DNA from: a virus
Direction: 5' to 3' (one strand)
DNA length: 25,919 nucleotides
UHGV virus genome: UHGV-0239440
This document shows positions 11,238 to 11,462 of this stretch, piece by piece. The position numbers were made by a program, and so were the translations under genes. Position 1 is the stretch's first letter. Each line of letters opens with the position of its first letter. The notes beneath the pieces were generated by a model, which did no database searches, was not told the DNA's origin, and worked only from the letters and a program-made list of their open reading frames with translations.

Positions 11238-11379
11238 AATAGTTAGCAGATTGCTTAGACGACCTTATCGGGTCTCCGTGTAAGGGGGTGGTCTGTATCT
11301 CATGTTTTCCAGAACATGTAAATAATCTGAGAAGGGGCTTTACAGTGTTGCGAAAATACGGTAAGCTTCGAATTATAGT

Positions 11380-11462
11380 GTGGGACGATGTTAAGACTCT
11401 AAGGCATGAGCAACGGCCTCCAAAACCGTTTCAAAGTGGTTCAACTCCTCCGTCCCATGCCA
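11380..11462 (+). tRNA. atypical tRNA-like gene (anticodon loop CTCCAAA resembles tRNA-Trp); possible pseudo-tRNA
   Basis: 7-bp acceptor GTGGGAC/GTCCCAT ending GCCA; anticodon hairpin ACGGC-CTCCAAA-ACCGT; but D region about 7 nt too long and T-stem pairs only 3/5. Confidence 0.3.

Follow-up and report, generated by a model that had tools for sequence, protein, structure and literature searches.

The stretch of DNA analysed here, called the window throughout, comprises the 25,919 nucleotides (nt) given for the virus genome UHGV-0239440 and, judged by its sequence, is DNA of a Felix O1-like phage (Ounavirinae). At 11380-11462 on its + strand stands a conserved, unannotated gene of 83 nt with an encoded CCA end. 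With a probability of about 60%, we consider this element to be a functional but structurally non-canonical transfer RNA (tRNA) for tryptophan, tRNA-Trp(CCA), which would be charged by the host tryptophanyl-tRNA synthetase (TrpRS) and would read UGG; most probably, what has come to light is a tRNA-Trp variant of new structure in a well-studied group of phages. In the original prediction, made from the letters alone, the interval 11238-11462 had been described as an atypical tRNA-like gene with a Trp-like anticodon loop and an oversized D region, and three options had been left for it, i.e., a functional but unusual tRNA-Trp, a pseudogene or a tRNA-like regulatory RNA. The first of these is favoured by the present analysis, while the second is opposed by covariation in four helices, by the invariant anticodon and discriminator base G73, and by the mutual exclusivity of the element and other tRNA-Trp genes.

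The tryptophan gap in the tRNA cluster

A region of about 1.2 kb around the element matched 278 phage records at 80-99% identity; nearly all of them were Felix O1-like, and the hosts named for these were Escherichia, Salmonella, Shigella and Citrobacter. ARAGORN called 26 tRNA genes in the window, on the + strand between 9003 and 14731, which serve 19 amino acids, Trp being the sole one missing. No call was made in the 238-nt gap between tRNA-Arg(TCT) (11161-11237) and tRNA-Ser(TGA) (11476-11565). Shigella phage Z31, whose complete genome matches the gap at 99.6% identity, likewise has 26 tRNAs in one cluster, and no tRNA-Trp was called by ARAGORN anywhere in that genome. The original prediction had reported no other tRNA-Trp and had named a canonical one elsewhere in the genome as the finding that would speak against its proposal; such a gene was looked for and was found neither among the 26 tRNAs of the window nor in the Z31 genome. 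The frequency of UGG in the genomes of these phages is about 11-12 per 1000 codons.

When the whole gap was used as the query, 257 records were obtained. About 230 matched from end to end, about 20, including wV8, matched only the first 142 nt (11238-11379), and in Yersinia phage P778 the match was confined to the tRNA-like part. With a covariance model built for the element itself, under which the window copy scores 108 bits, one copy per genome was found (>87 bits), flanked by tRNA-Arg(TCT) and tRNA-Ser(TGA) wherever the context was available, including P778, Arno162, L064 and L078. The model did not find the element in wV8, EP1 or phiEa21-4, each of which has its own ARAGORN-callable tRNA-Trp. 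Thus a Trp anticodon occurs in exactly one gene of every genome examined, and three forms of this gene were seen.

The element has passed without notice in annotation. Among the 100 records listed, none carries a tRNA annotation over it, the entries there being 'none', 'hypothetical protein' or neighbouring features. Full-text searching of the literature on tryptophan and tRNA in Felixounavirus yielded no paper; 22 tRNAs from tRNAscan-SE are given in the genome paper on Felix O1, with Trp in neither its text nor its tables (PMC3185647), and Trp is not discussed in the wV8 paper.

Selection on the fold

Copies of the element were collected from IMG/VR with a 5' pattern, an independent 3' pattern and a loose two-gap pattern, and from GenBank phages and metagenomes. 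They comprised 18 distinct variants of at least four lineages, spanning Felixounavirus, Mooglevirus-type phages (Moogle, Michonne, Sf13), Suspvirus (SUSP2), further unclassified Ounavirinae (P778, Arno162 and Wc4, of Yersinia and Pectobacterium) and the more divergent metagenomic phage L078; the metagenome scan contributed 22 loci with 6 new variants. For distant relatives in IMG/VR the looser two-gap pattern gave only chance matches upstream of tRNA-Gly, and none were found in the genome collection.

From the first 11 variants, RNAalifold without guidance produced a four-helix cloverleaf identical to the one drawn by hand. In a MAFFT alignment of 11 variants, 99.1% of the cells were paired and 8 of the 20 pairs showed compensatory double changes; none of 500 shuffled alignments reached the covariation score, and slid controls gave 35-52% pairing without any compensatory pair. 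When all 18 variants were aligned with the covariance model, 98.6% of the cells were paired and double changes occurred at 9 of the 20 pairs (34 cells); none of 500 shuffles attained even one of the five measures, and pairing in slid controls was 36-53%, with at most two compensatory pairs. An alignment fitted to a model leans toward the model's own structure, and the MAFFT result agrees with it in direction.

The compensatory changes were spread over all helices. The D helix was 100% paired with two of three pairs compensatory (UA/AU/GC and CG/UA) and occurred as CUC/GAG, CAC/GUG and CGU/ACG; the anticodon helix was also 100% paired, with compensation at four of five pairs, and occurred as AACGG/CCGUU, GUAAG/CUUAC, GUAGG/CCUAC and ACUUG/CAAGU. 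In the acceptor stem, pairs 1:72 (AU/GU/GC) and 2:71 (UA/CG) were compensatory, the first T-stem pair covaried as GC/UA (the U.U of the window being among the few broken cells), and 26:44 covaried as A:U, G:C and G.U. Among the 19 variable columns of the Felix-like copies, 12 form six compensatory pairs and two a perfectly linked 32/38 pair; of the rest, one is wobble-compatible, two are permissive T-loop positions and two break pairs, one of these being the G-to-U change in the T stem of the window. Nucleotide diversity in the element (0.050) was no lower than that in the flanking spacer (0.041-0.063), and the argument for selection on the fold therefore comes from how the columns change and not from how much they do so. 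U33, the anticodon C34-C35-A36, A37, G73, CCA, G5:C68, the D-loop GG, UUCRA of the T loop and the connector AUGUUAAGA were invariant in the 18 variants. Based on these results, the fold is under selection.

The same data bear on the possibility that the element is a tRNA-Trp pseudogene, i.e., a normal gene that was disabled by a 6-nt insertion and point mutations and is kept by the conservation of the cluster. It is detected as a tRNA by neither ARAGORN nor Rfam, it has a D-arm insertion, mismatches at 31.39 and 49.65 and, in the window, the U.U in the T stem, and clusters of the Felix O1 type do contain pseudo-tRNA calls and remnants (PMC3185647; window 9919-9983); the level of conservation, with diversity close to that of the spacer, does not discriminate. 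However, decay would break stems, and the stems here remain paired in 98.6% of the cells with 9 of 20 pairs compensatory although they differ at up to four of five positions. The anticodon, U33, A37, G73 and the T-loop motif never change, and the supposed defects (the insert, C31.A39 and A49.C65) are conserved in every lineage. Moreover, C31.A39 is common to the detectable tRNA-Trp of phiEa21-4, and the open 31.39 is thus a lineage trait of the tRNA-Trp of these phages and not decay. A pseudogene is therefore highly improbable.

Architecture of the element

All parts of the element lie on the + strand. The 5' strand of the acceptor stem, GUGGGACG (11380-11387), faces CGUCCCAU (11451-11458), which is followed by G73 (11459) and CCA (11460-11462), both the same in all 18 variants. 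Seven base pairs (bp) are certain (GUGGGAC at 11380-11386 with GUCCCAU at 11452-11458, including G1.U72), in agreement with the 7-bp stem ending in GCCA of the original prediction. An eighth pair could form between G8 (11387) and C at 11451; these bases are complementary in every one of the 18 variants, with A.C at 49.65 throughout, but since the eighth pair never varies it provides no covariation evidence. The G8:C complementarity and the unpaired 49.65 would favour an 8/4 acceptor branch over the 7/5 one, a choice that covariation does not settle, nor does it settle the exact place of the six extra nucleotides.

The connector AUGUUAAGA (11388-11396), 9 nt long and the same in every copy found, leads from the acceptor stem to the D hairpin and holds the six surplus nucleotides, e.g., UUAAGA at 11391-11396. 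In place of the canonical U8 and N9, 9-10 nt stand before the D hairpin, with G at position 8. This hairpin (11397-11410) has a covarying stem CUC/GAG (11397-11399 / 11408-11410) and an 8-nt loop, UAAGGCAU, with the GG expected for G18-G19. The 7-bp acceptor stem is separated from ACGGC by 26 nt, exactly as had been counted originally between the acceptor and anticodon stems.

The anticodon arm (11412-11430) consists of a 5-bp stem, AACGG/CCGUU (11412-11416 / 11426-11430), and a 9-nt loop, CCUCCAAAA. The letters CUCCAAA, given previously as a tRNA-Trp loop of 7 nt, do stand at 11418-11424 with the anticodon CCA at 11420-11422, but a loop of 7 nt would be closed by a C.A mismatch and has been refined here to 9 nt. 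The stem corresponds to 26-30:40-44 and not to the canonical 27-31:39-43 that closes a 7-nt loop; in the latter frame only four standard pairs are present, 31.39 being C.A or C.C in all 18 variants. The variable loop UCAAA (11431-11435) is followed by the T stem GUGG/CCUC (11436-11439 / 11447-11450) and the T loop UUCAACU (11440-11446), which reads UUCRAMU in all variants. The T stem has four pairs with 49.65 always A.C, and the window copy adds the U.U. Since most relatives have GGGG/CCUC, the latter is a change of a sub-lineage, and the weak T-stem noted in the original prediction holds for the window copy. A long variable arm and stems like those of tRNA-Sec are absent, the variable loop being 5 nt and the D stem 3 bp.

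The D-arm insert and detection by standard programs

ARAGORN in its default mode missed the element. At a threshold of 70% it made a call with wrong boundaries, and only its metazoan-mitochondrial mode gave the exact ends, as mtRNA-Trp(cca). On the other hand, the covariance model of the element aligned from end to end with ordinary tRNAs, which indicates a tRNA-like architecture, and foreign tRNA-Trp genes were among its best non-self matches (38.5 and 34.5 bits).

When any 6-nt block within positions 9-19 was deleted in silico, a tRNA-Trp of 77 nt with exact ends was called by default ARAGORN. This held in four of four lineages tested, the resulting D stem being UGCU/AGCA, with which a canonical D arm is restored. 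According to this deletion scan, the element is a tRNA-Trp body with an insert of 6 nt (UUAAGA), and the insert may be seen as lengthening the connector or, alternatively, as bulging out of the D stem on its 5' side. Pairing of the connector with the T loop, the variable loop, the D loop or the 3' trailer was sought by eye; a trailer match, UAAGAC/GUCUUA, is present in Felix-like copies but not in P778 or SUSP2 and was taken as chance.

Alleles of the Trp slot

The 142 nt upstream of the element (11238-11379, + strand) form a conserved spacer module that is also found in phages with the tRNA-Trp of the wV8 type. Because the module is shared whichever Trp allele is present, it is a separate spacer, and the tRNA-like gene is 11380-11462 only; the wider extent first proposed, 11238-11462, thus holds for its second part. 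In wV8, the module is followed by an unrelated tRNA-Trp(cca) of 71 nt, called by default ARAGORN, and then by gp50. This cassette (L003 847-1336 in wV8) was present in 23 records and replaces the element exactly, from the module to tRNA-Ser; its tRNA is annotated as tRNA-Trp in some records and as pseudo or tRNA-OTHER in others. The product of gp50 is named HNH endonuclease in RefSeq, and its Pfam match is below threshold (16.9 bits against cut-offs of 21-23). The occurrence of both alleles in Felixounavirus and in Suspvirus suggests allele exchange driven by an endonuclease. The open reading frames (ORFs) of the window inside the tRNA island were also considered as homing endonucleases and rejected, belonging to DUF7338, DUF7217 or no family.

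The wV8-type gene shares with the element the slot, the module, the CCA anticodon, G73 and the CCA end. Its D arm is aberrant as well (71 nt, D stem of 2-3 bp), but shortened where that of the element is expanded, and its sequence is unrelated, with an acceptor AGGGGUG like that of E. coli, a 5-bp anticodon stem and a 7-nt loop. Of the two, only the wV8-type gene has the probable HNH gene downstream and a default ARAGORN call. The third form is found in phiEa21-4 (Kolesnikvirus), in which an ARAGORN-callable tRNA-Trp of 76 nt lies between tRNA-Gly and tRNA-Thr; this slot is closed in the window, where the two genes are 6 nt apart.

The exact exchange of the element for a cassette of tRNA-Trp and probable HNH gene in about 23 records could possibly indicate that the element acts at the DNA level, as a recognition or homing site of the HNH protein, and the annotation of a hypothetical protein over the region in some records could point to protein coding (ORF 11288-11491, 67 aa). 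Neither role would produce strand-specific compensatory changes and G.U wobbles in the layout of a cloverleaf. In relatives, the upstream part of the ORF contains indels that break the frame, and the ORF runs into tRNA-Ser, while the HNH assignment is itself weak at the score given above. We find either explanation scarcely credible, and the ORF was rejected as a protein-coding candidate, as it crosses the tRNA-like gene into tRNA-Ser and its frame is not conserved in relatives.

Evidence for and against a role in translation

A functional tRNA-Trp at this place would be transcribed on the + strand together with the tRNAs beside it, with a sigma-70-like promoter candidate at 10929-10957 (+ strand, TTGACA-17-TATAGT) as the probable start. 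This candidate, found by a pattern scan and matching 11 of 12 consensus positions, is the nearest upstream one for tRNA-Arg, the spacer, the tRNA-Trp-like gene and tRNA-Ser; no + strand terminator came to light from this site to the element, and a consensus scan inside 11238-11475 gave neither a promoter nor a + strand terminator. A 'promoter' annotated inside the upstream module in AYO145A was rejected, being on the opposite strand and a mere pattern match. The element would then be excised by host RNase P and 3' nucleases, its CCA end being already encoded, and the 83-nt RNA folds, as covariation shows, as a four-arm cloverleaf. Its acceptor and T helices form a stack of 12 bp, for which a split of 8/4 in place of the customary 7/5 is the simplest reading, the short D hairpin supplies the GG that normally docks on the T loop, and 9 nt, six above normal, connect the acceptor stem with the D hairpin (or, put differently, the D stem has a 6-nt bulge on its 5' side). 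The anticodon stem is shifted up by one pair, giving the 9-nt loop. Host TrpRS, reading the anticodon triplet and G73 and touching no parts but the anticodon loop and the acceptor arm, would charge the RNA with Trp for decoding of UGG, and the phage would then own tRNAs for all 20 amino acids.

The identity elements agree with this scheme. For E. coli TrpRS, the anticodon and G73 are major and A1:U72 and G5:C68 minor identity elements, and the co-crystal shows contacts on the anticodon loop and the acceptor arm (PMC12135181). Both major elements, CCA at 11420-11422 and G73 at 11459, are invariant in the 18 variants. As to the minor ones, G5:C68 is invariant, and 1:72 is A:U in 11 of 18 variants, G.U in the window and three others, and G:C in three (P778, Arno162, L078). 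Previous studies also showed that an E. coli synthetase, EF-Tu and the ribosome accept, without adaptation, a tRNA that lacks the whole D arm, turnover by PNPase being limiting (PMC11551756), and that tRNA-Ser and tRNA-His of the 8/4 type occur in phage tRNA clusters (PMC5389517; review PMC7609411).

Several points weigh against a tRNA-Trp that functions in translation. The window copy has G1.U72 instead of A1:U72 in addition to the U.U of its T stem, and as there is neither a canonical U8 nor a 2-nt connector, the usual tertiary core cannot form in the normal way. The one irregular 8/4 tRNA with an extra loop that was tested was not charged by the E. coli glycyl- or threonyl-tRNA synthetase (PMC5389517). 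The relaxed ARAGORN search suggested in the original prediction gives correct ends in the mitochondrial mode but fails for the window copy at thresholds of 95, 90 and 80% and in intron mode. Rfam, searched over 8500-15500 at E<=10, gave no RF00005 match at the element (cut-off 29 bits), and the sole match there, to tRNA-Sec, scored 21.3 bits where the gathering score is 47. The single-sequence fold was not more stable than those of shuffles (z = -0.56), and thermodynamics alone thus says nothing on the fold. Covariation proves selection for the fold, not a translational role, all variants come from closely related phages of one subfamily, and the searchable literature yielded no expression data for these phages. 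The invariance of the connector is also partly by construction, several scans having used it as bait; however, every locus recovered with a 3'-half pattern whose query lacked this linker contains it, as do P778 and Arno162, whose copies were found by similarity alone.

These points leave room for a selected RNA that is derived from tRNA-Trp and acts outside translation, either as a decoy or sponge for a host factor (a nuclease, a modification enzyme or TrpRS acting on tRNA-Trp) or as a processing or regulatory element of the operon. The small stable RNAs encoded in the tRNA cluster of T4 may be likened to it. Such a role would suit a fold that is selected and yet has a non-canonical core (9-nt connector, no U8, 9-nt loop, 4-bp T stem) and is rejected by standard tRNA models, and the 6-nt insert, the same in every copy, suggests specific binding or a tertiary role. 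In addition, extra-loop tRNAs and many allo-tRNAs were inactive in translation or charging tests in E. coli (PMC5389517). However, a decoy has no need of mutual exclusivity, and the element and another tRNA-Trp never co-occur; the major TrpRS identity elements, G5:C68 and the encoded CCA have been retained unchanged, and the element brings the phage set to exactly 20 amino acids. A role outside translation is for these reasons regarded as unlikely, and a functional tRNA-Trp remains the preferred reading.

Comparison with known tRNAs

Compared with canonical tRNA-Trp(CCA) (E. coli trpT and phiEa21-4), the element has in common CCA, U33, A37, G73, the 7-bp acceptor stem, G5:C68, A1:U72 (in most copies), UUCRA, the D-loop GG and a short variable loop, and differs in its 4-bp T stem (49.65 A.C), the anticodon stem at 26-30:40-44 and the 9-nt loop. 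With the phiEa21-4 gene it shares a 15-nt core, CGGC-CUCCAAA-ACCG, that includes C31.A39, the former having U27.C43 as well. The slots of the two are different, the element following tRNA-Arg(TCT) and the phiEa21-4 gene lying between tRNA-Gly and tRNA-Thr, and the element is the one that is missed by ARAGORN and Rfam.

The 8/4 and E-loop tRNAs of Mukai et al. 2017 (PMC5389517) resemble the element in a 12-bp branch that can be read as 8/4 and in an extra loop between the acceptor and D arms. They are tRNA-Ser, tRNA-His, tRNA-Cys or allo-tRNAs, for the most part with a long variable arm and features of tRNA-Sec, and the E-loop examples are from acidobacterial polycistrons near toxin-antitoxin genes (PMC5389517), whereas the element has Trp identity, an enterobacterial host and a variable loop of 5 nt. 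Metazoan mitochondrial tRNAs tolerate non-standard D arms and connectors, as the element does, and it is the ARAGORN mode made for them that calls the element. Motifs of the D or T loop are usually lost in these tRNAs, whose partner factors have evolved along with them. Unlike them, the element keeps GG and UUCRA and would need the standard machinery of E. coli or Salmonella.

A further comparison is with the tRNA-Trp variants that read UGA. In E. coli, UGA readthrough is raised about 2.5-fold by a tRNA-Trp(CCA) whose anticodon stem is open at the top, and it is also promoted by the D-arm changes A9C and G24A (PMC13092985). The element is open at the bottom (31.39), as in a class of 267 bacterial tRNA-Trp(CCA) genes whose loop is enlarged by 2 nt and which were left unstudied (PMC13092985), and it is altered in the D-arm region where A9C and G24A (Hirsh) act (PMC13092985). 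In contrast, the tested UGA readers are open at the top (27.43) and have a 7-nt loop (PMC13092985), while the top of the element is closed and extended by a 26:44 pair. The three tRNA-Trp forms of the subfamily each have a feature linked in the literature to altered decoding by tRNA-Trp(CCA), i.e., the expanded D arm, the truncated D arm or the doubly open anticodon stem. The insert and the open 31.39 might be functional adaptations, and not defects that are tolerated, of a tRNA-Trp that is accepted by the host and behaves differently from the host's own, serving for escape from a host defence or turnover directed at tRNAs or as a near-cognate UGA reader of the Hirsh type, but we regard this as quite doubtful.

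Recoding of UGA was rejected as far as genome proxies go. TGA ends 28% of the long ORFs in Z31 and 25% in the window, compared with 23% in phiEa21-4, and TGA stops are thus not depleted; nor were the in-frame extensions of ORFs ending in TGA longer than those of ORFs ending in TAA (p = 0.79). A single notable case arose in this readthrough screen: in Z31 (L057 39120-42386) the DNA polymerase ORF ends in TGA, and one codon on, in the same frame, begins an ORF for an HNH endonuclease, whose stop is again TGA and is followed by an in-frame extension of 87 codons. This is probably a coincidence.

Other features of the cluster

The upstream module gave a consensus fold of 42 pairs in which many one-sided changes stay wobble-compatible on the + strand; no double compensatory change was found in this fold, and Rfam (E<=10) returned nothing in 11238-11379. 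As modelled, it is possibly a structured leader. At the tip of one of its hairpins, Moogle- and EP1-type phages have an extra self-complementary insert of 23 nt, and a Shine-Dalgarno-like AAGGGGGT (AAGGAGGT in most relatives) occurs at about 11281-11288. In P778 (L004 1373-1498) and Arno162 (L059 2381-2494), the Felix-type module is replaced by a conserved ORF of 37-41 aa (..FAICFPSG..LNRSAFGWL.KEL) between tRNA-Arg and the element. This ORF of Yersinia and Pectobacterium phages and the module at 11303-11311 of the window have TGTTTTCCA (Cys-Phe-Pro) in common, which hints at common ancestry.

The preceding tRNA-Arg(TCT) slot (window 11161-11237; L001 529-610; L003 640-698; L005 311-703) is polymorphic among relatives. 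It may hold a normal tRNA-Arg(TCT), of which there are two versions that differ in the anticodon stem, an ORF for an HNH endonuclease (FO1a gp44) or, in Moogle, Michonne and SUSP2, a different tRNA-like sequence. In wV8, REP8 and others, it contains an allele with a good acceptor, a T arm, a CUUCUAA loop (anticodon UCU) and CCA, but with no recognisable D arm; it is annotated as tRNA-OTHER and is not called by ARAGORN. Judging from these features, this allele may be a second hidden non-canonical tRNA.

Further uncalled sequences were noted. At 9919-9983 in the window, Rfam gave a tRNA match below its threshold (24.7 bits, E = 0.1); a T arm, GAAGG-TTCGATT-CCTTC, can be seen there, ARAGORN made no call, and the sequence is probably a tRNA remnant or another aberrant tRNA. 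In phiEa21-4 (L061 23873-24289), an uncalled T arm with an acceptor 3' strand and CCA lies about 130 nt downstream of a possible 5' strand. A sequence like tRNA-Ser(TGA), without ARAGORN call or annotation, directly follows the element in Arno162 (L059 2606-2694). DNA of the window type, at about 93% identity, was also matched in MG065664.1 (Campylobacter phage A132) and in one Staphylococcus phage record, which are probably mislabelled or contaminated entries.

Implications

Based on the results of this study, standard tRNA finders can miss phage tRNAs that are selected and probably functional, and such omissions affect inferences on which tRNAs phages lack. Felix O1-like phages are among the most used enterobacterial phages, being employed in Salmonella typing, biocontrol and therapy cocktails, and the papers on their genomes report 22-26 tRNAs, none of them for Trp. 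If the element is functional, these phages would have a full set of tRNAs for the 20 amino acids, and about 236 deposited genomes would be without the annotation of one tRNA. It would also be a natural tRNA that works with the standard machinery of E. coli and Salmonella despite a 6-nt insertion in the D-arm region, and that combines this with a probable 8/4 branch and a 9-nt anticodon loop. The alleles of the wV8 and phiEa21-4 types provide a built-in natural comparison for it, which is directly testable in E. coli.

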